A stretch of DNA of 64,000 nt from Ignavibacteria bacterium (GTDB lineage: Bacteria; Bacteroidota; Ignavibacteria; Kapaibacteriales; UBA4661): contig JAAFIV010000003.1 of assembly GCA_013298775.1 (NCBI GenBank), forward strand, positions 141,460 through 205,459. Reading direction: 5' to 3'. The position numbers and the translations under genes are program-made. This document shows positions 29,458-51,410 of the stretch, piece after piece. Every line of letters starts with the position of its first letter. Position 1 is the stretch's first letter. The notes under the pieces are model-generated. The model was given only the letters and a program-made list of their open reading frames with translations. It made no database searches and was not told the origin of the DNA.

Positions 29458-31260
29458 ATGGCAAAAAAACGTTCACCCGCTCCCGCAACGACATCGGCTG
29501 CGCCTCGCGCCCCATTCGCATCTCGCTTTCTTTCCCGCTTTTCATGGTATCTTGTCCTCATGCCGCTTCTCACGCTGCTTTGGGGTTGGATATATTTTGA
29601 AAACGGTGAAATTATTGCGCTGAATAAAGGTTGTGGTTGGGACGGCGTAACCTACAAAAACGTTGTCTGGAGCTTGCAATGGAACAAAGCCCGCCCCGAT
29701 TACGCCGAGCGAAGCCGCTTGCGCATTGACCCCTACCGCGTACAGCGCATTGCACCAAGCGTGGCGGTGTATGGCGAGATGCAAGCCGCACGGTGGCTGT
29801 ATCAGCACGTAACGCCGATGTTTACTCGTGTTCCGGCGTGGTTGGAATGGAGCTACGAACAATATCCGCTTCCGCCGTGGTTTTTTCGGTGGTTTGCTGA
29901 TAATTCTATCAATTCAAACCAAGCGGCAAATGCCCAAAGCGTCGCACTGACGCTGGATAGCCTTGTTGCGGGATATTTCGTTTTTCACAGTTTGCTCATG
30001 CTGCTCGGAACGGCAGTGCTGTGGGCAATGACGGCGCGAAAGCTCAATCTTGGTGTAGCGGCGCGGTGGCTGGGCTTTTGCGGGCTTTTTGCGAATGTCG
30101 CCGTGATGAAAATGAGTTTGTATTATCCCACACTCACCGACACGACCGCGCTGTTTGTGGCAATGCTGATGCTGTATGCGTACATTGCCAACAGCGCGTG
30201 GTTGCTGCTTCCGGCGGCAGTGCTGGGCTTTTTTACCTTCCCGACGGCGATGTATGTTGCGGCGTTGCTGTTTCTCTTTCCGCGCAATATCGTTTTGCAC
30301 AATGAAGTAGCACCAGGAGAAGTAGCACCAGGAGAAGTAGCACAACCTGAAACACCAGCAATGACGGTCTTTGTACGAAATGTAAGCATTGGTGCGGTGG
30401 TGGTGGTATTGCTGGCAAGCGTGTATTTTGTGCTGATTGCAGAAGTGCGTTTTGTGGAGGTTGAGCCGCTTCAGCCGTTGTTGCTCATTCTCACGCTGCC
30501 CTTGCTCTGCGGGCAAGTATTCTTCACGGTTTCAAGGCTTGCAGCACAGTTTCCCGTGCAAGCGATAATGCGCCATTTCACGGAGCGCAAACATCTTGCT
30601 GGATACGCCCTGCGAGCCTTGATTTTGCTTGTTCTTTGGGCGGGATTGCTGTATTGGAAAAAGCAAATTGAAGACCCCACGCTTGCCGCGCCGATGAATA
30701 CAAGCCTATTTTTTGGTGGAAGTTTTGCCAGTGCGCTTGGAAAGCCCTTGTTGCCTGTGCTGGCGGGCGCGGTGTATTTTGGTCCAATTATTTTGGTGAT
30801 GATTCTTCGCTTTCGAGAATTTCTCAAAGCCGCATGGAATCTGGGTTTGGGCTATATGCTTGTGATAACGGCATTGCTGCTCATGGGAGCAATTATGTCG
30901 GAAACGCGGCAGCTTATCAATTTCTTGCCGTTTTTGGTGTTGGGTGTGGCGTACAGCCTTGATTCTGTCAGGCTTCCACGCATCGCGCTGGTGCTGTTCG
31001 CGCTTGTCGGCGTGATGGCAGCGAAAGTCTGGCTCCCGTTCAATTTTACAGGAATGGCGGAGCAAGCGGCAAACATCACAGGCGGCATCCATGCAACGTT
31101 TCCCTTGCAATACTACTTTATGAATCACGGACCATGGATGAGTTGGGCGAGTTATTTCCTGCAAGGAGCGTGTGCGCTTGTGGTGGCGGGGTTGCTGTGG
31201 TGGGTGCTGTCGCCGCAGTTTGCGGCGGAGTATGGGGAAAAGCAATCACAACAAAAATAA
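29458..31260 (+). CDS. Large polytopic membrane protein of unknown function with an internal (EVAPG)x3 tandem repeat
   Basis: More than 12 hydrophobic segments and a 15-bp coding tandem repeat at 30304-30348. The start position is uncertain (29407 or 29458). Confidence 0.5.
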   Translation: MAKKRSPAPATTSAAPRAPFASRFLSRFSWYLVLMPLLTLLWGWIYFENGEIIALNKGCGWDGVTYKNVVWSLQWNKARPDYAERSRLRIDPYRVQRIAPSVAVYGEMQAARWLYQHVTPMFTRVPAWLEWSYEQYPLPPWFFRWFADNSINSNQAANAQSVALTLDSLVAGYFVFHSLLMLLGTAVLWAMTARKLNLGVAARWLGFCGLFANVAVMKMSLYYPTLTDTTALFVAMLMLYAYIANSAWLLLPAAVLGFFTFPTAMYVAALLFLFPRNIVLHNEVAPGEVAPGEVAQPETPAMTVFVRNVSIGAVVVVLLASVYFVLIAEVRFVEVEPLQPLLLILTLPLLCGQVFFTVSRLAAQFPVQAIMRHFTERKHLAGYALRALILLVLWAGLLYWKKQIEDPTLAAPMNTSLFFGGSFASALGKPLLPVLAGAVYFGPIILVMILRFREFLKAAWNLGLGYMLVITALLLMGAIMSETRQLINFLPFLVLGVAYSLDSVRLPRIALVLFALVGVMAAKVWLPFNFTGMAEQAANITGGIHATFPLQYYFMNHGPWMSWASYFLQGACALVVAGLLWWVLSPQFAAEYGEKQSQQK

Positions 31261-31271
31261 TTCTCATCCCC

Positions 31272-31334
31272 CTGAAAGAAATTCCTCGCTCATGTGTCAT
31301 TCCTGAAATCCCGTGTTTACTCAATTCTTTTTCG
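31272..31334 (+). promoter_or_regulatory. Conserved ~65-bp 5' leader shared with the third beta-barrel paralog (36047-36108)
   Basis: CTGAAAGAAATTCCTCGCTCATGTGTCATTCCTGAAATCCCGTGTTTACTCAATTC is near-identical at both loci, directly upstream of paralogous genes. Confidence 0.6.
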
Positions 31335-31341
31335 ATACAAT

Positions 31342-32004
31342 ATGCGTTTGTTTCTCTTGTTCTTCGCGATAGCAATCGTGCTACCAGCAAGTACCTACGC
31401 CGCTTTTGGCGAAGGCACCGACAGCACCAAAACTGATTCCAATCAAGTACGAATGTACCAATACATAGGCGCAAGTGCCATGCTCACAACGGGACATCGC
31501 ACACTCGGCATCCCGCCAGAGTTTGCTGCACAGTTCGGAGATGCGCCGCTTGTGAGTTTTGGCTTGCATGGCGTGTGGCTAGGAGATTTGCTCTTCAAAA
31601 CCAACAAACTCCGCACCTCTTACGGCATTGAGAAAATCCTGAACGCTTATCCTTCGCCGCGTATCTTGGAAAATATTCGTTTTGCTGTTCAGTTTGGCTA
31701 CTACGTTTTTGAGCAGGAAATGACGCAGAAAGGGCTGAAAGCCTATCCTTTTCTTGGTTTTTCCTCAAGCATTTACTACGTCGATAATGGTGTTCGCCTG
31801 AGTGTTGCTTCTGTGGAAGGCGGCGCAGGTGTGGACTGGTTTGTCCCCCAGACACCGCTTCTCGTCGGCATTCAAGCCTCGTACAATCATAGTTGGAATC
31901 TTCGCGCGGCGCAGAATGTGGCGAATAATGTGGGTGGCGTTTGTGTGAAAGCGCAGGTTTCTATTTTTATTCGGGAGAAGAAGAATCCTTTGGGATGGGA
32001 CTGA
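31342..32004 (+). CDS. Outer-membrane beta-barrel protein, paralog A of three
   Basis: Signal peptide ending ASTYAAFG, alternating beta-strand pattern and a C-terminal aromatic residue (GWD). About 60% identical to 35310-35990. Confidence 0.55.
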   Translation: MRLFLLFFAIAIVLPASTYAAFGEGTDSTKTDSNQVRMYQYIGASAMLTTGHRTLGIPPEFAAQFGDAPLVSFGLHGVWLGDLLFKTNKLRTSYGIEKILNAYPSPRILENIRFAVQFGYYVFEQEMTQKGLKAYPFLGFSSSIYYVDNGVRLSVASVEGGAGVDWFVPQTPLLVGIQASYNHSWNLRAAQNVANNVGGVCVKAQVSIFIREKKNPLGWD

Positions 32005-32291
32005 AAGAAAGGCATGATACGTCCTTTTGAATGTGCCTCAACACAAGATTTTATCAAGCCTACAAGCCTCTTTTTTGATTTCTGCACTTTTAAGTGCTTT
32101 TCCCTGCAAGCCTGATGACACCTTGCTTTGAAGTTATTTTATTTTCAGGGTCAGTGAATTGTTGAATGCAGCTACATTGTACAACTGCATATTGTTCATA
32201 GAGATAATTCCATCTTTTTGTTATCTTACGCTATGAATAAATGTGGGTAGTATTGGTGTTCGATGTTCAACATTTTCCCTGATTCTGCCGT

Positions 32292-32831
32292 ATGCTTACT
32301 GCTACTGCTTTGGCGGATATTGATTCCGCTCTGCGCCATGCCGAACAAATGCGTTTGTTCGCAGACTGGCTCTTGCAACAACATGAACCCGTTCTTCTTC
32401 AAGCGGTCTTTCAGCCCTCGCAGAACGCTGTTTCGCTGTGTGCTGAGAGCGGCGAGAGTATGTTGCTGCCCTACGACGACATTCTTTACTGCCTCGTCAG
32501 CGAGCATTTTAGCGAGTTGTACTACCACGTCCCACCTCTCGGCAAAACGGTACAGAAATCCCTCCACAACAAGCCCCTGAAAGACTGGGAAGCAATGCTG
32601 CCCAGCACCCTTTTTGTGAAGGTGAATAAATCCTGCCTCATCAACAGCAAGCACGTGCGCGTTGTTGAGCGTTGGGACACGGGCAAGGGCTTTCTGCTGA
32701 CCATGAGCGACGGCAAAGAAATAAAAGTCTCGCGCAACCACGTGGAGAAGCTCCGCGCCCTGTGTGCGGCACGTTTCCCTATCCTGCAGGTGTATGGTCG
32801 TGGGGGGGGGGCAGACGAAAGAGCCGCGTAA
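32292..32831 (+). CDS. Stand-alone LytTR-family DNA-binding regulator. No receiver domain; it ends in a G10 homopolymer tract.
   Basis: The C-terminal FVKVNKSCLINSKHVRVVERWDTGKGFLLTMSDGKEIKVSRNHVEKLRAL matches the LytTR domain consensus. The N-terminal ~80 aa lack receiver-domain Asp motifs. Confidence 0.7.
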   Translation: MLTATALADIDSALRHAEQMRLFADWLLQQHEPVLLQAVFQPSQNAVSLCAESGESMLLPYDDILYCLVSEHFSELYYHVPPLGKTVQKSLHNKPLKDWEAMLPSTLFVKVNKSCLINSKHVRVVERWDTGKGFLLTMSDGKEIKVSRNHVEKLRALCAARFPILQVYGRGGGADERAA

Positions 32832-32914
32832 AAATAAGCCCTAACAATTTGGGAATAAAGAAGTAAACGCTGGTTTGAAATTTCAAAATTCTTTGCAGAA
32901 AATCACTGTACGGA

Positions 32915-33022
32915 GGACACTTTCCGCGAATAATACCTGCGCGAAGTGTCCTCTTCTTGTGTAAAAAACGCGAAAGTGGACACTTGAGGAAGTAATGCGG
33001 ACACTTCAGGAAAAGGCACTTG
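32915..33022 (+). promoter_or_regulatory. Cluster of five GGACACTT repeats, including two 9-bp direct repeats with a 12-bp spacer. Candidate LytTR box.
   Basis: GGACACTTT (32915), rc GGACACTTC (32943), GGACACTTG (32978), GGACACTTC (32999), GGCACTTG (33015). The 32978/32999 pair has the 9+12+9 LytTR-type geometry. Confidence 0.5.
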
Positions 33023-33242
33023 TGAAGAAAAAAGGAATCGTGTAGATTCGCACTTGTTACGCTGAAATGATAAACATTCTCAGGAATAACAAAACAAACG
33101 GCTCACCGCTTTTCTTCCGCTTGACGGTGAACCGCTTGTGAGGAAAAACCTCGCTGCATCAAGGAAAAGTTTTCGCGGACTTTCTTGACATGATGCAAAA
33201 CTACACATTTTTTACGAGCGGAAAAATTTTCTGGAGTTTTGT

Positions 33243-33464
33243 ATGAAAACCCAAAAACAACGTTTGGCGGCAATGATGTTTGCTGTGTTAGTCTTTGGAG
33301 CTGGTATGACACCAGTCCTTGCTAATTCAGCCGCTTTGAAACTTATTGTATTTGTTGGCGGTATTGTCCTAAATGGACCTCCAGAGATTTACACACCGAT
33401 GATGGTAGGTGCGGTCGTTGCTGGATTTACCCCTTTATGGCCAGTTGCTGTCGGTCTTTTATAA
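33243..33464 (+). CDS. 73-aa hydrophobic peptide with 2-3 TM segments, first gene of the AT-rich island
   Basis: MKTQKQR then three hydrophobic stretches. It is preceded by an 18-codon uORF (33190-33246) whose stop overlaps its ATG (ATGA). Confidence 0.35.
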   Translation: MKTQKQRLAAMMFAVLVFGAGMTPVLANSAALKLIVFVGGIVLNGPPEIYTPMMVGAVVAGFTPLWPVAVGLL

Positions 33465-33599
33465 TCGCCGCAAACTTATTTCACTCTACGTTTGCTTGAA
33501 ATTTGGATTTGATTTTCAAGGAAAATCTATTCAAAATTTCAAGCAAACGGAGGGTAAATAATTTCTATACATCCATCTTTTGAATAGTGCCAATCCATC

Positions 33600-34403
33600 A
33601 TGATACGAACCTATAAAACTCATATCTTATTTCATGGAATAGCATTAGCAGTTTTTTTTGCTTGTTTTTCTGCATACGCTTTTACATCCTTGAAAGTTGG
33701 ATTTCCCTTTGCAAACAAACTTATAGGAATCTTTCAAGCCGTCTGCGCCATCAGCCTAATACTTATCTTTTCACATAAAACCTGTCAAAGTATTCTCAAC
33801 AATATGAAAGGCTTATATGATGGTGTAGCTCGTGGTGATAGCTTGCTTTCTAAAAATTTTGCAATCATTATTGTCATTGCCTGTATCGCAATCACAGTTA
33901 TTCATTTAACCTATATTTCATCTTACATCCAATTCACAAGCCACTTGGATAATCCCCATGTTGAAAAACTATTATACGCCTTTACAATCATTGGTTCATC
34001 GGTAGGAATTCTTATAAATTGGCTGCTATTATCGGCATTATCGTATTTATTGGCAACAGCTCTTGACATTCATCACAATTTTAATTTTTATGTCTCTGCC
34101 GTCGGTATAGGGCAGATAGGGATGTTTCTTGCGATATTTACTGCATTCCTGATGAGTTTACTTACATTAGACTCAATGATGTCAATCTCGCATTTTGCTG
34201 AAATGTCCATAAATTCTTATGAGCGAAATATGATTGGTAAATTCGGTGAATTTGTTATGCTATTTATCATTTGCTGCTTCTTAATGCTCAATGAAAAAAT
34301 ATCTTCAAAATATGCCGTAATTATAGCATTTGTGCCAACTCTACTTGTCGGTTTCATCAGTGAACTTGTAAAATTTTTGACCCAAAATTTATTCTTGCAA
34401 TGA
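33600..34403 (+). CDS. Polytopic membrane protein (Yip1-like?), AT-rich island
   Basis: 267 aa, 6-7 TM, ~35% GC against a ~50% background. It overlaps the next gene by 4 bp (ATGA). Confidence 0.5.
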   Translation: MIRTYKTHILFHGIALAVFFACFSAYAFTSLKVGFPFANKLIGIFQAVCAISLILIFSHKTCQSILNNMKGLYDGVARGDSLLSKNFAIIIVIACIAITVIHLTYISSYIQFTSHLDNPHVEKLLYAFTIIGSSVGILINWLLLSALSYLLATALDIHHNFNFYVSAVGIGQIGMFLAIFTAFLMSLLTLDSMMSISHFAEMSINSYERNMIGKFGEFVMLFIICCFLMLNEKISSKYAVIIAFVPTLLVGFISELVKFLTQNLFLQ

Positions 34404-34990
34404 AAATCTTTAGACGCTTTTTGCAGCTATCAGAACTACAACAAACATATATCCTTTTACTCTGTTTGTTAGGGGCATTATTGATAGGGTTGTTTTGTGG
34501 CATAAAATCTTCAGCAAGTGTAAGTAACACTTTAGTTTTACAGGCAAGTAGGGATGCTAATATTATTGAACAAGCTACTTTTGTAACATTTCAAAAAATA
34601 GCTGTAAACAACCTATTATGCGCTGGTCTGTTACTCACAAGTTTCTTTTCCTTTGGCTTAATACCAATTTTGATAATTGCTTACAACGGCATCATGATTG
34701 GCTATACCCTGAAACTTGGATGCAACCAAATTGGTGTTTTACCCACTTTAGCATTAGTCTTGCCGCATGGTGTTGTAGAAATGACAGCAATTTTATTTGC
34801 TGCATTTTTAGGAATGCGCATATCCATTGCTTTCATTGAGTTTTTGCAGTCCGATATGGAAAACAAACGATTTTTTTCAATGTTATTTAGTACCCAAAAT
34901 ATTCTTCTACTGGGATTGATACTCATTGCCGCCTTAATTGAATCTTTTATTACACCATACATTTACGACTATGTTCTGCATTCAATCTAA
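34400..34990 (+). CDS. DUF95/SpoIIM-like membrane protein, AT-rich island
   Basis: LPHGVVEMTAILFAAFLGM resembles the conserved HG..E..A motif of SpoIIM/DUF95. It has 5-6 TM segments. Confidence 0.5.
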   Translation: MKIFRRFLQLSELQQTYILLLCLLGALLIGLFCGIKSSASVSNTLVLQASRDANIIEQATFVTFQKIAVNNLLCAGLLLTSFFSFGLIPILIIAYNGIMIGYTLKLGCNQIGVLPTLALVLPHGVVEMTAILFAAFLGMRISIAFIEFLQSDMENKRFFSMLFSTQNILLLGLILIAALIESFITPYIYDYVLHSI

Positions 34991-35309
34991 GCAAAAAACA
35001 CAGAGTGAATACGTCCATTTTCCTCGTAGTATTGGCAATATTGAGCATTTTCAATAATCTCAGCCTTCACGCACAAAAACTAAAACCTTCCTCACGATGC
35101 GACTTCTCGCTGGCAAGCCTCTCACTACCTGGGTATCGTATTATCAATACAAGTAGGCTACGCATTCATGGGGTCTCCGCGCTCCAAAAGATGTCCCAGA
35201 CAATCAGTCATAAATTACTAGATTTAACCTATCGTTCTGGCTCCGCAACCAATCTTCCCAACGGGAACTTTAGCCTTCTTCTTTTTCCGTACTCTATTTT
35301 CATATCGTT

Positions 35310-35990
35310 ATGTCTTACCATTTCTCCCTCCGTTGTTTGGTTTTCCTATCCATTGTATTTCTTACTACACCGAGTATATACGCTGCTTTGGGCGAAGGCA
35401 CAGATAGCACCAAAACTGACTCTACACAACTGCGAATGTATCAATACTTGGGCGCAAGCTCTATGCTCACAAGCGGACACCGCACACTTGGCATCCCTCC
35501 GGAATTTGCTACGCAGTTCGGTGATGCACCGCTTGTGAGTGTTGGTTTTTATGGCGTGTGGGTAGGAGATTTACTCTTTAAAACTAGTAAACTCCGCACG
35601 GCTGCTAGCTTTGAGAAGATACTTAATGCTTATCCGTCATCGCGCATATTTGAAAACTGGCGTTTTATGGCACAGTTTGGCTACTATGTCGCTGAACAAG
35701 AGAGTAATAAACCTAAAGGACTGAAAGCCTATCCTTTCCTTGGGTATAGCTGGAATTTATACTACATAGACAATAGTGTTCGTATGAGCATTCTTTCTGT
35801 GGACGGCGGGGCGGGCGCTGACTGGTTTATCCCCCAAACCCCAGTGCTGGTCGGCGTTCAAGCCTCCTACAATCACAGTTGGAATCTTAGTGCTGCAAAG
35901 GAAGTAGTAAATAATGTAAGTGGTTTGTCTATTAAAGCACACATCGCAATTTTTATTTTTGAGAAAAAAAATCCTTTCGGCTGGAACTAA
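35310..35990 (+). CDS. Outer-membrane beta-barrel protein, paralog B
   Basis: Collinear with paralog A (GEGTDSTKTDS...RMYQY...HRTLGIPPEF...NHSWNL...GWN). Confidence 0.55.
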   Translation: MSYHFSLRCLVFLSIVFLTTPSIYAALGEGTDSTKTDSTQLRMYQYLGASSMLTSGHRTLGIPPEFATQFGDAPLVSVGFYGVWVGDLLFKTSKLRTAASFEKILNAYPSSRIFENWRFMAQFGYYVAEQESNKPKGLKAYPFLGYSWNLYYIDNSVRMSILSVDGGAGADWFIPQTPVLVGVQASYNHSWNLSAAKEVVNNVSGLSIKAHIAIFIFEKKNPFGWN

Positions 35991-36046
35991 GGAAAGACAA
36001 ACATCAAACGGCTCGTTTTGAAAAAATGACATCTACCTGAAAGAAA

Positions 36047-36108
36047 TTCCTCGCTCATGTGTCATTCCAGAAATCCCGTTTTTACTCAATTCCTTTTGAA
36101 AAAATATG
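36047..36108 (+). promoter_or_regulatory. Second copy of the conserved 5' leader (see 31272-31334)
   Basis: Near-identical to the leader of paralog A. Confidence 0.6.
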
Positions 36109-36816
36109 CGCTTGCTTCTTTATTTCTGGATAATAGCAATCGTGCTACCATCAAACATTTACGCGCTCGGCATGGAGAGCGATAGCACACAAACTCGCAT
36201 GGGTAGCGTGTACGCGGGTATTACCCCAGCAAATACGGCAACCGCCGACAGCCTCCGTGCAGATTCAGCAAAGGTGCGGATGCGGCAATACGTTGGAGCC
36301 GCCTCGACGCTTACTACCAATCACCGCTCGCTTGGTCTTCCAGCAGAATACGCTGCACAGTACGGAAATATGCCGCTTTCCAGCGTTGGCATCAATTTTA
36401 TTGCTATCGGCAATTTCCTTTTCCAAACCAATCGTTTGCGTTCTTCCGTCACATTTGAACGCTTTGTGAATGTCTATCCCTCGAACAAAATACTGGAAAA
36501 TTTTCGAGAATGTCTTCAAATCGGCTACTACGTCTATGAGCGAGATGCTATCAAGCTGTATCCATTCATTGGCGGCACGGTGGGATTGTACTACATAGAT
36601 AATGGCATTCGATTGGGTGTGTTTGCAGCAGAAGCAGGTGCGGGGCTTGATTACTTCATTCCCAAGACCTCGCTGCTTGCTGGACTACAAGTTTCCTACA
36701 ATCATACGTGGAATATTCGGTCTGCGGCGGATGCTGTCGGTAATATCGGCGGTGTGGCAGTGCGGGCGCACGTTTCCATCCTCTTTAGCGAGCGCACCAC
36801 GTGGTGGGGCTGGTAA
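36106..36816 (+). CDS. Outer-membrane beta-barrel protein, paralog C (more divergent)
   Basis: Same domain order with a longer N-terminal Thr/Ala-rich segment. It ends WWGW. Confidence 0.55.
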   Translation: MRLLLYFWIIAIVLPSNIYALGMESDSTQTRMGSVYAGITPANTATADSLRADSAKVRMRQYVGAASTLTTNHRSLGLPAEYAAQYGNMPLSSVGINFIAIGNFLFQTNRLRSSVTFERFVNVYPSNKILENFRECLQIGYYVYERDAIKLYPFIGGTVGLYYIDNGIRLGVFAAEAGAGLDYFIPKTSLLAGLQVSYNHTWNIRSAADAVGNIGGVAVRAHVSILFSERTTWWGW

Positions 36817-47367: not shown

Positions 47368-47777
47368 AGTGCAACGAGGTACAAATGGACAAGAAACAAA
47401 AAAAGGGCTTCGTAAAGAAAGCCCGAAATAAACGAAATAACGATGTCGGAATAACTCGTAATTAACGATGTACTTTTGGATACTTACGCTCAACTAGACA
47501 AGCCACAAAGTTACGGAAAAATTTTAACTTGTCCAAATTTTCCCTCAGCTTCGATAGCGAGTCCGCTTTGTTCTTTCTCGGAAATCACCTCAACTTCCTC
47601 CTTTCTTGAATTCAAGTTTTGTATTCTCCATACTTTCTGCGTACTTTGCTGTGGTGATGCTTTGCGGGCAACCGTGCTTGAGAATCCTCTCAAGAACCGC
47701 CGTCATTCCTCACAGCATTTCGTGTTCGTAATTTGTTCATGTTTCTGTTCGTGTACCACCCAACTTTTCTTTTGTCT

Positions 47778-50700
47778 ATGTCCACGTCCACCGCGCCTCT
47801 TTCCGCTTCAGATACCGCACAATCGGCTGCACTTCGCGAAAGCCTTGGAAATTCGCTGCTCATCAATACCGTCAAACTTTTTTCGTTGCTTGCGAAGGCG
47901 GACAGCAATGTTACGCAGGCAGAGCGCGACTACGTGCGGTTTTACTTGGACTCCATCTACCACGCGCCCGTTGCACAGTATTTGTACGAGCAGTTTGAAG
48001 TATTTGTTGAGGCAAATATTGATGCTGAAGCTGCCGCAGCGCAGATACGGACTGGCTTTTCGTATGAAAATCGCGTGTTTATTTTGATGAAAGTCTATGA
48101 GCTTGCCGCTTCCGATAGCATGGACGATATTGAGCGCGAAACAGCCCGCAAAATCGGACGCATGGTTGGGCTTGCCGATGCTGATATTTGCTTTGTCGAA
48201 AGCATCTACGACCTTCCTTCCAATGAAACCTTAGAAATTGCAAAAGGCTCGGAAATTGTCTCCATCCACATCGGCGACGACGCGCATCTGTTCGATATTG
48301 TGCTGCCCTTTCCGCTTTTGGATGTTGAGATTTTCAAGATTCGTAGCATTTACATTATTCTTCAGAAAAACGACCGCCATCCCGTGAAAGTAGGCGGTGT
48401 GGCGATTGCAGGAAAAACCTCGCGCAACCTGCTGAACGCCACGAAAATCCAGCATAATCAGTCTATTTCGGTCAATGAGTACACCGTCAATTTTGAAGAC
48501 CTGAGCTATTATTTTCAGCTCAAAACCAAGACCCTGCTTGGCTTCGCGCTGTTTGTCTCGCGGCGAATCAACGTGGATAGAAAAACCACCGAGTTTGTGC
48601 TTTCGCAAATGCCGAGCATGGACGACGTGATGCTGATTGAATTTACCAAGCTCTTTATCATCCTCACACCGCTTGGTGTAACGGATTCGGACTTGGGCAA
48701 ACTCGCCAACGAGCTTGTTGTGAACGGGCGCGTGGTGGAAAATCAAATCTACGTGAATTTGAACGACAGCGTACTGATTGGAAATTGTCCTATCAATTTG
48801 CGCAAACTCGCCTTCCAGTATGGCTTGGAAAGTGAAGTGTTCAAATTCGACCCCAAGCAAGATTCCGTCACGTTTGGGAACTATATCGGTTCGGATGTTT
48901 TCTTCAACGACGGGTTAATAAAACGCTGGCAAATCAAGGTTTCACGCGCCGAGAAGGGCAACGAGGTGGAATATACGTTGCATCCCGAAGGCTGCCCGCA
49001 TCGCATCGGCATCAATGGTGAAGCCGTTTCCAAGCCAACGGTCGTGAATGCGGAGGCGCATATTTTTATTGCCAAGCAAGTCTTTCATTGCTCGTTTCAA
49101 GGCGGTTTGGTGCGTTCAGAACCGTTCCGCTTCCGTGATTTTATCGCAAGCGGCGTGCGGTATTGCTTTCAAGACAACACGCTCGCGCTGGACGACGTTT
49201 CCTTTGAAATTGACTACGGCGACCTTGTTGCCGTGATGGGACCCTCTGGCTGCGGTAAATCCACGCTTCTGAATATCATCAACGGCTACAACAAGCCCAA
49301 CGATGGCAATATCGAAATCAACGCCTACGACCTGCACCGTGAATACTCCGCCCTGAAGGATTATCTCGGCTACGTACCGCAAGACGACTTGCTTTTCGAG
49401 AATTTGACCGTCTTCGAGAATCTCTACTACAATGCGAAACTGCGCCATCCCGACATGACCGAAGAAGAAGTTACGCAGCTTGTCCAGCAAACCTTGATAG
49501 ATATTGACCTCGTAGAAAAGCGCGACATCAAGGCGGGAAGCCCCACGCAGCGCACCTTGTCGGGCGGGCAACGCAAGCGCGTAAACATTGGTCTTGAGCT
49601 TCTGGCGGATGCGGATGTGTATTTTCTTGACGAGCCAACATCGGGCTTGTCGTCGAAGGATTCTGAGAAAATTATTGAACTACTGCAACGCCTCACGCTC
49701 AAAGGGAAAATCGTGTTTGTGGTCATTCACCAGCCAAGCTCGAAAATTTACAAGATGTTTAGCAAAATTCTCTTCCTCGACAAGGGCGGAAAAACGGCGT
49801 TCTTTGGCGATAGTATGGCGGCGTTGGCGTATTTCAAAACGCACTCTGCCGAATCGCACATTTCCTCAACGCCCATCAATCCTGAGGCGGCGGCGGCAAT
49901 GGTGGAATGTCCCGTCTGCAAAAACGTGGAGCCAGATTTGCTCTTGGAAACGCTTGAAGAACCGCTCCGCGACATTGACGGTGTGCCGCTTTCGCAGCGC
50001 AAATACGCGCCGAATTATTGGAAAGAAAAGTTTTTGGAATTCCGCGCTTCCGTGCATCGTTTGACGATTGAGGACAGTGAGCGTGTATCGCTGCCGCCCC
50101 CGAAAATGCTTGCTCCGAAGGAAAAATGGGCGCAGTTCCGTGCTTTGCTTACACGCAATTTCACGAACAAATTCCGCGACCGCTCGAACCTCATTATCAC
50201 GTTCTTGGAAGCACCTGTTTTGGCGATTGCTGTTGCGTTTATTTTGCGCCACGCGCCTGGATTCGGCGTGGAATATAGCTTCTTCCAAAACGACAACGTT
50301 CTGATTTACATCTTTCTTTCGGTAATTATTTCCACCTTTTTGGCAATCACGAACAGCATTGATGAAATCATCAAAGATGCAGCAATCCTGCTCCGTGAGC
50401 GGATGTTGAACATTGGGAATCTGAGTTATTATGCCTCGAAGTTCATTACCTTGCTCGTTTTTGCAGTTTTGCAGAATGTCCTCTTTGTGGCGTTTTCCTT
50501 CCCGATTCTGCAACTGCAAGAATTGTATGTGCAATATGTTCTGTTCTTGACGCTCGTTTCGGTCAATGGTTTGGCGTTGGGGTTGCTGGTGTCGGCATTT
50601 CCCAATCTCTCGTCCAAAGCTGCATTCAACATTGTTCCGCTTATTTTGATTCCGCAAATTATTTTCGGCGGTGCGCTCATTTCCTTTAGCGAAATGGACC

Positions 50701-51410
50701 ACTTGAAAATCAATCCAACCCGCGAAATTCCTGAGATTTGCCAAGTAATTCCGGCTCGCTGGGCGTATGAAGGCATGATGACGATGCAAGACCGTTTCAA
50801 CAGTTTTCAATCAACCGATGACGAACTCCAAAGCCGCGCCAATGGTGTGCTTGCGGTCTATGATACCCGCGACGCTGCCGTAAAAGAGCGCGATGCCTTG
50901 CTTGCGCAGGATTCAAGCGCGAATGCGACCAATGCAGGCGCAAAAACAAGCACAAAGACAAGCGCGAACCAAGCACGCATCACAGAGCTAAATGCAAGCA
51001 TTGAAGCGGCACAGCAGCGCATTGGCGAATACGAGCGCAATAAAGCGGGCTTGGATTCGTTAATTGAAAAACATCGTTTGGGTTATCAGGATAAGTACGG
51101 CAATCAGGAAATCCATCGTCAAATCATGGAAGCGCAAGACAAACTCCGCGAGATTTTAAGCCGCACCGACAGCCTGACGCAAAAACCAATCGTCGAAAAA
51201 AGCTCGGTGAATTTGATTCATTACCCGCTTCTGATTAGCGACAAACGTGTGCCGCTCACACAAATCACGATTCCGACGATTTTTTACAACTCGTTTGTTT
51301 TGCTCATCATCACGCTCGCAGCCGTCGGCGCGGCACTGGTGATGCTAAGTTTGCGCGAGCGCATTTTGGATGCCTTCTTCCGCTTGACCAAAATGTTCCA
51401 GCGAAAGTAA
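47778..51410 (+). CDS. Multidomain ABC transporter: TerB-like N-terminal domain, two FHA-like segments, ABCG-type ATPase, ABC-2 permease and a C-terminal coiled coil with a final TM
   Basis: LINTVKLFSLLAKADSNVTQAERDYV (TerB-like), GPSGCGKSTLLNII (Walker A), LSGGQRKRVNIGLEL (signature), VYFLDEPTSGL (Walker B), then six TM helices and an AQQRIGEYERNKAGLDSLIEK coiled coil. Confidence 0.75.
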   Translation: MSTSTAPLSASDTAQSAALRESLGNSLLINTVKLFSLLAKADSNVTQAERDYVRFYLDSIYHAPVAQYLYEQFEVFVEANIDAEAAAAQIRTGFSYENRVFILMKVYELAASDSMDDIERETARKIGRMVGLADADICFVESIYDLPSNETLEIAKGSEIVSIHIGDDAHLFDIVLPFPLLDVEIFKIRSIYIILQKNDRHPVKVGGVAIAGKTSRNLLNATKIQHNQSISVNEYTVNFEDLSYYFQLKTKTLLGFALFVSRRINVDRKTTEFVLSQMPSMDDVMLIEFTKLFIILTPLGVTDSDLGKLANELVVNGRVVENQIYVNLNDSVLIGNCPINLRKLAFQYGLESEVFKFDPKQDSVTFGNYIGSDVFFNDGLIKRWQIKVSRAEKGNEVEYTLHPEGCPHRIGINGEAVSKPTVVNAEAHIFIAKQVFHCSFQGGLVRSEPFRFRDFIASGVRYCFQDNTLALDDVSFEIDYGDLVAVMGPSGCGKSTLLNIINGYNKPNDGNIEINAYDLHREYSALKDYLGYVPQDDLLFENLTVFENLYYNAKLRHPDMTEEEVTQLVQQTLIDIDLVEKRDIKAGSPTQRTLSGGQRKRVNIGLELLADADVYFLDEPTSGLSSKDSEKIIELLQRLTLKGKIVFVVIHQPSSKIYKMFSKILFLDKGGKTAFFGDSMAALAYFKTHSAESHISSTPINPEAAAAMVECPVCKNVEPDLLLETLEEPLRDIDGVPLSQRKYAPNYWKEKFLEFRASVHRLTIEDSERVSLPPPKMLAPKEKWAQFRALLTRNFTNKFRDRSNLIITFLEAPVLAIAVAFILRHAPGFGVEYSFFQNDNVLIYIFLSVIISTFLAITNSIDEIIKDAAILLRERMLNIGNLSYYASKFITLLVFAVLQNVLFVAFSFPILQLQELYVQYVLFLTLVSVNGLALGLLVSAFPNLSSKAAFNIVPLILIPQIIFGGALISFSEMDHLKINPTREIPEICQVIPARWAYEGMMTMQDRFNSFQSTDDELQSRANGVLAVYDTRDAAVKERDALLAQDSSANATNAGAKTSTKTSANQARITELNASIEAAQQRIGEYERNKAGLDSLIEKHRLGYQDKYGNQEIHRQIMEAQDKLREILSRTDSLTQKPIVEKSSVNLIHYPLLISDKRVPLTQITIPTIFYNSFVLLIITLAAVGAALVMLSLRERILDAFFRLTKMFQRK

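Follow-up and report, generated by a model that had tools for sequence, protein, structure and literature searches.

What is a small hydrophobic peptide gene, followed by two membrane-protein genes, doing next to the gene for a receiver-less LytTR regulator in a chromosome of the Bacteroidota? The question is raised by a locus near the middle of a 64,000-nt stretch of DNA (the window; contig JAAFIV010000003.1, positions 141,460-205,459, forward strand) from the Ignavibacteria bacterium assembly GCA_013298775.1, a Kapaibacterium-like member of the Bacteroidota, in the Fibrobacteres-Chlorobi-Bacteroidetes (FCB) group. An earlier interpretation of the bare DNA (the sequence-only reading) had suggested a LytTR regulatory system (LRS) of the streptococcal HdrRM/BrsRM type or, alternatively, a bacteriocin-like peptide with membrane or immunity proteins under LytTR control. 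The alternative fits better, with its conserved peptide leader, variable core, duplicated precursor gene in a relative, and DUF95- and Yip1-type partners. We give about even credence to the view that LytTR here activates a bacteriocin-like peptide cassette of the DUF95/Yip1 type that has been pared down to three genes and resides in a Bacteroidota chromosome. Among known systems, the cassette appears most to resemble a circular-bacteriocin locus in much reduced form; such loci have been reported almost exclusively from Gram-positives. The four open reading frames (ORFs), the 4-bp overlap between the last two, the small ORF upstream of the peptide gene and the low-GC block all lie where the ORF listing and the sequence had led the sequence-only reading to place them. 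The elements of the locus are:

32292-32831, + strand: receiver-less LytTR-family transcription regulator, 179 aa (Pfam LytTR match; GC content at third codon positions, GC3; ratio of nonsynonymous to synonymous substitution rates, dN/dS)
32913-32953, + strand: hairpin after the LytTR gene, then TTCTT; intrinsic terminator candidate (inverted repeat; RNAfold -25 kcal/mol)
32979-33008, + strand: LytTR-type direct repeats GACACTTGA (32979-32987) and GACACTTCA (33000-33008), 12 bp apart
33020-33048, + strand: promoter candidate P1, with -35 TTGTGA, 17-bp spacer and -10 TAGATT, 11 bp after the second repeat
33055-33242, + strand: 5' leader of ~188 nt, highly conserved (comparison with contig L004)
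33190-33246, + strand: upstream ORF (uORF) of 18 codons, its TGA overlapping the peptide ATG at 33243
33243-33464, + strand: precursor peptide, 73 aa (ORF; Shine-Dalgarno sequence GGAG; homologues in contigs L003 and L004)
33480-33558, + strand: long imperfect hairpin of 79 nt with 38-nt arms (inverted repeat; RNAfold -38 kcal/mol)
33600-34403, + strand: Yip1-like polytopic membrane protein, 267 aa, ~6-7 hydrophobic segments
34400-34990, + strand: SpoIIM/DUF95 membrane protein, 196 aa (Pfam PF01944)

The cassette family is extremely rare, with four sources in total. The sequences used for comparison were L002 (GCA_004292595.1, a Candidatus Kapaibacterium metagenome-assembled genome, 87-95% nucleotide identity to the window), the Logan contigs L003 (92% nucleotide identity), L001 (100% identical to the window) and L061 (the same peptide from the same sample), and the ENA contig L004, a more divergent relative. 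Against close relatives, dN/dS amounts to 0.25-0.35 for all four genes (0.27 for the peptide; 0.26 for the LytTR gene, vs L003), and we therefore regard all four ORFs as real genes.

The peptide itself carries much of the argument. In an alignment of the window peptide with that of L003 and the two peptides of L004, the N-terminus is nearly invariant (MKTQKQRLAA-MFA…P-LA); the 27 N-terminal residues are the best conserved part, and the cores are variable. The leader is signal-like, MKTQKQRLAAMMFAVLVFGAGMTPVLA|NS, and is followed by a 46-aa core ending …GFTPLWPVAVGLL; all three cores have a C-terminal Leu directly before the stop codon. Read by eye, the leader looks like a Sec signal peptide: a charged, a hydrophobic and a small-residue region can be made out, and V-L-A|N-S occupies -3/-1. 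Cleavage after A27 (…PVLA|NS) would release the 46-aa core. This core is strongly hydrophobic (grand average of hydropathy 1.28) and neutral (pI 6.0), with a calculated mass of 4694 Da for the linear form (18 Da less for a cyclic one), and consists of two hydrophobic helices linked by NGPPEIYTP. The 73-aa peptide as a whole has three hydrophobic segments, in line with the two to three transmembrane segments anticipated from the sequence. An AlphaFold2 model has helices at residues 4-44, 47-62 and 65-72 (pLDDT 77, pTM 0.37); Foldseek found nothing for it in the PDB at E<=0.001, and neither Pfam nor NCBIfam has a matching family for the peptide. L004 carries two different precursor genes in tandem, of 82 aa and ~75 aa (the latter after a one-base correction in an A-run). 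The sequence-only reading had pointed to a possible processing site at the Gly-Gly of residues 39-40. The two glycines are present, but a homologue has FIGMIL instead; as the motif is not conserved and no transporter with a C39 peptidase is found, a double-glycine leader was rejected.

The peptide gene is accompanied by genes for two membrane proteins. The second of these, two genes downstream, is indeed DUF95/SpoIIM-like as proposed, with a match to PF01944 far above the cut-off (E=1e-22, 81.2 bits vs 26.9); the same protein also gives a sub-threshold match to Mem_trans in Pfam. For the first, a Pfam search for Yip1 had been recommended, and the outcome is divided: the match to Yip1 (PF04893) is nearly full-length (profile positions 26-167 of 173) and is seen in two of three family members, but with E=0.0037 and 17.6 bits it remains below the cut-off of 28.6. 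The AlphaFold2 model of this 267-aa protein (pLDDT 44) is too poor to judge the fold. In L004, a Yip1-like homologue with 43% identity lies downstream of the two peptide genes. The Yip1-like and DUF95 genes overlap by ATGA, and through this overlap the DUF95 gene is, judging from the sequence, translationally coupled to its neighbor. An LPHG(V)(V/L)E motif is common to the DUF95 proteins of the window and L002 and to P0007, a 29%-identical DUF95 protein with nothing informative in its gene neighborhood. In tblastn searches against plasmids, the DUF95 protein found haloarchaeal SpoIIM only, and the Yip1-like protein found no match. The hairpin at 33480-33558, between the peptide gene and these two genes, has persisted in L002 although both arms have changed in sequence, and in L004 its place is taken by a different one. 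The window hairpin lacks a clear U-tract and is a candidate attenuator or mRNA stabilizer.

How is the peptide gene connected to the regulator? The two genes are separated by a spacer of 411 bp. At its beginning stands the hairpin 32913-32953, likely the intrinsic terminator of the regulator gene; in L004, its outer arms are kept and the inner stem is different. The direct repeats that follow are 9 bp each and 21 bp apart from start to start, and in extended form read GGACACTT[G/C]AGGAA. All four copies of GGACACTT in the 64-kb window fall within 32915-33006, two of them in inverted orientation in the hairpin arms and two as the direct repeats. Furthermore, both the pattern CACTT-N16-CACTT and a pair of 14-mers matching at >=13 of 14 positions with 21-bp spacing occur nowhere else in the 64 kb, and a 148-bp stretch holds 7 copies of CACTT/AAGTG vs 0.23 expected (30-fold excess, P=6e-9). 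The boxes of LRS are 9-bp direct repeats with a spacer of 11-13 bp, ~10 bp before the -35 hexamer, and the HdrR and BrsR boxes ACCACTTAA and ACCACTTAT, which drive bacteriocin genes, have the same 9-bp/12-bp geometry and the CACTT core (PMC6193735, Table 2). The repeats are conserved in L003 and L004. P1 is represented in L004 by TTGTCA and TAGATT, with a spacer that differs in sequence and keeps its length of 17 bp; constant repeats and hexamers around a spacer that varies at fixed length are the pattern expected of a real promoter. P1 is a candidate LytTR-dependent promoter of the sigma-70 type, from which transcription would start near 33055. No 9-mer pairs matching at >=7 of 9 positions with 20-22 bp spacing were found upstream of the LytTR gene (32005-32291). 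A TTGACA at 33185 was also considered as a standard promoter and was rejected, as no acceptable -10 hexamer follows it.

The 5' leader that P1 would transcribe contains the module CGCGGACTTTCTTGAC…CGAGCGG, the uORF and the Shine-Dalgarno sequence GGAG at 33233-33236, 6 nt before the ATG. It is 81% identical to L004 at the nucleotide level vs 55% for the Yip1-like coding sequence and 49-60% for the peptide cores, and its part CGCGGACTTTCTYGAC … CGAGCGG … GGAG is duplicated in L004, where one copy precedes each peptide gene. Rfam gave no family above chance, only sub-threshold hairpin noise of the microRNA type, and RNAalifold found no covariation among the three sequences, too few for this purpose. 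The uORF with a stop overlapping the peptide ATG, which the sequence-only reading had described, is retained in L003 and in the first copy of L004; in the second copy, there is an upstream ORF in frame instead. As a conserved coding unit the uORF was rejected: conservation is seen in its nucleotides and not in the encoded amino acids.

The regulator matches LytTR (PF04397) at residues 56-157 (E=2.6e-16, 60.1 bits vs a cut-off of 22.6) and has no Response_reg match in Pfam at E<=1. The 55 aa before the LytTR domain form a helical extension, too short for a hidden receiver domain, which is thereby excluded; the claim of a receiver-less regulator thus holds. In agreement with this, NCBIfam matches to LytR and BtsR are confined to their C-terminal domain, and the PDB match is to a LytTR domain alone (3d6w, residues 90-157, E=1.4e-6). 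The tail of the protein is Gly-rich and is encoded by a G10 tract at 32802-32811. No other G/C homopolymer of at least 7 occurs in the window, and L003 has G13 at this site; one-base slippage in the tract would leave the LytTR domain unchanged and convert the acidic tail (ADERAA) into a basic tail of greater length. The tract may be hypervariable, or the site may be prone to sequencing errors. Upstream of the gene, toward the neighboring paralogue A (see below), lies the palindrome GCACTTTTAAGTGC (32084-32097), containing the CACTT motif in inverted form, which could be a terminator or an operator; an operator role is without support, one arm being altered in L003 (CAGTG).

Base composition separates the regulator from its presumed targets. 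GC content is 31-36% across 33400-35050 vs ~50-55% in the flanks, which agrees with the low-GC island described earlier. GC3 is 0.32 for the peptide gene, 0.31 for the Yip1-like gene and 0.315 for the DUF95 gene, compared with 0.65, a host-like value, for the LytTR gene and 0.63 for the TonB receptor gene. Because the three genes have a common GC3 of ~0.32, the block looks acquired as a unit, and the LytTR regulator looks native or acquired separately. The cassette is intact in the window and is decaying in L002, where an IS607-like element (positions 759-2666 of L002, RDXM01000094.1; serine recombinase/resolvase and OrfB_IS605/TnpB) interrupts the Yip1-like gene and the DUF95 gene has suffered a C-terminal frameshift with loss of the last helix. 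The cassette is therefore dispensable.

What does such a cassette resemble? A SpoIIM/DUF95 protein is encoded in every circular-bacteriocin cluster (PMC6131525, PMC5695211), YIP1 proteins are found in the cerecyclin and altitudin S clusters (PMC8534725; bioRxiv 10.1101/2025.10.31.685828), and the pairing of DUF95 with Yip1 has been called characteristic of circular-bacteriocin clusters (PMC6131525; bioRxiv 10.1101/2025.10.31.685828). As in these clusters, e.g., those of cerecyclin and altitudin S, the precursor gene studied here adjoins genes for a SpoIIM/DUF95 and a Yip1-like membrane protein. Translational coupling, a varying number of precursor copies (some circular-bacteriocin clusters have several precursor genes; PMC8659200) and the accessory, horizontally transferred character are common features as well. 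In particular, the small hydrophobic precursor with its 27-aa leader and neutral core is similar to subgroup II (gassericin A, acidocin B, plantacyclin B21AG), in which leaders have 22-35 aa and the hydrophobic cores are neutral or negatively charged (bioRxiv 10.1101/2025.10.31.685828). With subgroup II sequences taken from PMC5471241, Table 6, hhalign aligned the conserved G-x-T-P-x-W block of the family with the invariant G-V-T-L-P-A-W of the subgroup (Prob 19%), and the second L004 peptide reached a Smith-Waterman score of 52 with gassericin A (shuffles: mean 25, standard deviation 5; reversed controls up to 42). We take the resemblance to circular bacteriocins already known as a weak, motif-level lead only.

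Several points weigh against a bacteriocin-like cassette of this kind. The Smith-Waterman scores of the window peptide itself are within the control range, and it has no significant similarity to circular bacteriocins or to any family in Pfam, NCBIfam or PDB sequences; a PDB-sequence search with the single peptide and with the family profile likewise gave no circular bacteriocin. The predicted core has 46 aa and 2-3 helices, whereas known circular bacteriocins have 58-82 aa and a saposin fold of 4-5 helices. Genes for an ATP-binding/ABC protein, a large 'B' membrane protein and a small (cationic) immunity protein, as found in circular-bacteriocin clusters, are missing from the cassette and its vicinity: there is no ATP-binding/ABC protein between 28.9 and 41.3 kb, and the nearest one (47733-51410) is 13 kb off among unrelated genes. 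The host is a diderm (Kapaibacteriaceae-like) bacterium of the Bacteroidota, with no evident route for the peptide across the outer membrane. The Yip1 assignment is sub-threshold, and unrelated contexts can harbor DUF95 proteins too; among plasmids, the nearest match was a haloarchaeal SpoIIM. Finally, the conserved neighborhood is known from just four closely to moderately related sources, and the L004 contig is too short for linkage to a LytTR gene to be visible. A further difference is that the leader of the cassette peptide resembles a genuine Sec signal peptide. Mining criteria demand a transporter or ATPase (PMC8534725, PMC8659200), and the predicted clusters are nearly all from Firmicutes, besides a few from Actinobacteria (including propionibacteria), one from Thermotogae and one from Novosphingobium (PMC5695211, PMC8534725). 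The statement of the sequence-only reading that no such system has been described in an FCB genome is consistent with the mining studies consulted. The gene order without an ATPase gene between the peptide and Yip1-like genes is kept up to the end of the L004 contig.

The regulatory side of the locus has its own parallels. As in the PlnC/D, BlpR/ComE and AgrA-type regulons, a direct-repeat box is located just upstream of the promoter of a small-peptide operon, in which the peptide gene comes first and membrane or immunity genes follow; in contrast to such LytTR-controlled class II bacteriocin regulons, the cassette has no histidine kinase, receiver domain, pheromone gene, double-glycine leader or ABC exporter with a C39 peptidase. 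Could it then be an LRS in the streptococcal sense, i.e., a sensory switch in which a membrane product (the uncleaved 73-aa protein with its three transmembrane segments, the Yip1-like protein or the DUF95 protein) sequesters the LytTR protein until an envelope signal frees it? We regard this as quite improbable. Part of the HdrRM/BrsRM proposal stands. The regulator has no receiver domain and is soluble and ~180 aa long like those of HdrRM, BrsRM and SMU_1070c/1069c of Streptococcus mutans, the repeats are LRS-like in sequence and geometry (9 bp, CACTT core, 12-bp spacer, ~10 bp before the -35 hexamer; PMC6193735), and the target includes a bacteriocin-like peptide gene. Moreover, as there is no kinase gene near the cassette, some control other than phosphorylation is needed, and LRS-like variants with other membrane partners have been anticipated in Bacteroides (PMC6193735). 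The shared operon, the autoregulatory box and the inhibitor families did not stand. Here, a terminator hairpin, 411 bp and a separate promoter, all read from the sequence, place the membrane genes outside the regulator operon; the direct repeats are downstream of the regulator gene with none upstream of it, so positive autoregulation is not evident; the membrane proteins belong to other families, with no Pfam match to DUF2154 or another LRS inhibitor family; and the GC3 of 0.65 vs 0.32 argues that the regulator and the membrane block have not evolved as one operon. A sensor inhibitor would also not be expected to duplicate with divergent cores, as the peptide has done in L004.

SpoIIM acts as a scaffold in sporulation. 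The cassette might instead be a non-antagonistic membrane module, in which a small Sec-inserted protein and Yip1-like/SpoIIM-like scaffolds serve the envelope or transport and are switched on by LytTR, with neither toxin nor cyclization. We find this somewhat unlikely. DUF95 and Yip1 proteins are widespread outside bacteriocin loci, the cassette and its vicinity have no transporter, immunity gene or protease, the short core could be a plain hairpin of two transmembrane segments, and the flanks encode outer-membrane-type proteins and a TonB-dependent receptor. Yet it is secreted peptides, not structural subunits, that typically combine a conserved leader with a core and a copy number that vary; the cassette has a foreign composition, is extremely rare and is easily lost; and bacteriocin and competence genes are the classical targets of LytTR direct-repeat promoters (PMC6193735). 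The insertion and frameshift in L002, together with the absence of the expected partners (ATPase, immunity), would also suit a locus that was transferred horizontally, has since been decaying and no longer serves a function in this genome. For the window, this is very improbable indeed: its ORFs are all intact and have dN/dS of 0.25-0.35, the regulatory region and leader surpass the coding sequences in conservation even in comparison with L004, and the gene order is kept as far as the L004 contig extends.

If the locus is a LytTR-activated, bacteriocin-like cassette, it would be a horizontally acquired, accessory three-gene operon that was placed under a LytTR-activated promoter beside a host-like receiver-less regulator. 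The LytTR protein would be made from its own transcript, ending at the 32913-32953 hairpin, and would bind the two repeats at 32979-33008 and recruit RNA polymerase to P1. The P1 transcript would carry the conserved 188-nt leader and the 73-aa ORF with its Shine-Dalgarno sequence. The signal-like peptide leader would be cut off after …PVLA, leaving a neutral, hydrophobic 46-aa peptide of two helices at the outer face of the inner membrane, while the hairpin after the peptide gene would keep the peptide mRNA in excess over the mRNA for the membrane proteins. The coupled Yip1-like and DUF95 proteins may process or export the peptide or protect against it, as is thought for their counterparts in circular-bacteriocin clusters. 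Binding and activation by LytTR, a role in toxicity or competition and the roles of both membrane proteins are what we infer from this arrangement. Head-to-tail ligation of the core would be possible, and we consider it unlikely that the peptide is cyclized in this way. It is decidedly unlikely that a Sec-exported precursor is processed by DUF95 and its Yip1-like partner, which would cut the leader and ligate a core of 46-56 aa without a dedicated ABC ATPase, all under a receiver-less LytTR protein.

The enzyme that cleaves and cyclizes circular bacteriocins is not established, and DUF95 is merely presumed to do so (PMC6131525; PMC13463998). In every cluster studied so far, the genetics are complicated by ABC transporters and additional membrane proteins. 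A cassette of peptide, Yip1-like protein and DUF95 protein would isolate the function of DUF95, if DUF95 matures the peptide. The cassette would then represent a new subgroup of circular peptides outside the Gram-positives, would extend this peptide class to the Bacteroidota and could serve as a three-gene test bed for what DUF95 proteins do. Besides, the locus shows in clean and compact form a receiver-less LytTR regulator whose operator and promoter can be identified, and this in the FCB group, where LytTR regulatory logic is essentially unstudied. A non-toxic membrane module would be of limited interest.

The rarity of the family is apparent from searches of different kinds. In word-indexed protein searches, the LytTR, Yip1-like and DUF95 queries retrieved only the source genome, one Kapaibacterium metagenome-assembled genome and short Logan contigs. 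An exhaustive HMMER search of 1.84 billion representatives with the peptide gave one true homologue; two giant repeat proteins were discarded as repeat-summed artifacts. Scanning genome contigs with the Yip1-like alignment revealed nothing beyond the known Kapaibacterium assembly, and a metagenome scan with the conserved upstream DNA module gave a single match, in a high-GC glycosyltransferase contig, which was dismissed as chance. No cassette relative was present in the viral contigs scanned; the repeat pattern had 52 matches there, about the order expected by chance from a rough estimate of the collection size. PADLOC gave no match, and PHROGs gave LytTR-like matches for the regulator only. 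A phage, integrative-element or defense-system origin was rejected, there being no integrase, att-like repeat or adjoining tRNA.

The surroundings are chromosomal, with housekeeping genes (EF-P, AccB/C, IF-2, NusA, RimP) and outer-membrane-type genes, and the immediate flanks encode outer-membrane-type proteins and a TonB-dependent receptor. The cassette is bracketed by three paralogous genes for proteins of ~230 aa with a signal-like N-terminus and a weak match to outer membrane protein beta-barrels (pairwise amino acid identities 68%, 47% and 41%):

31294-32004: paralogue A
35310-35990: paralogue B
36106-36816: paralogue C

Paralogues A and B form 0.6-kb direct repeats (31385-32002 vs 35368-35988; 74-79% nucleotide identity) ~4 kb apart around the cassette, and recombination between them could delete it. 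A and C have their upstream region and N-terminus in common (31256-31400 vs 36021-36164). The order differs in L002, where an A-like body is at the position of C, and the array has therefore been rearranged. Also missing from L002 is a 291-bp segment after the DUF95 stop codon (34992-35282). This segment opens an ORF (35005-35538) that starts like a signal peptide and enters paralogue B in a different frame; it was called as a gene on the identical contig L001 but is probably not one. Farther away, 13 kb from the cassette and with no evident link to it, the ABC protein mentioned above (47733-51410, 1225 aa) is an uncommon single-chain fusion of an N-terminal TerB domain with an ABC ATPase and with an ABC-2 membrane domain.

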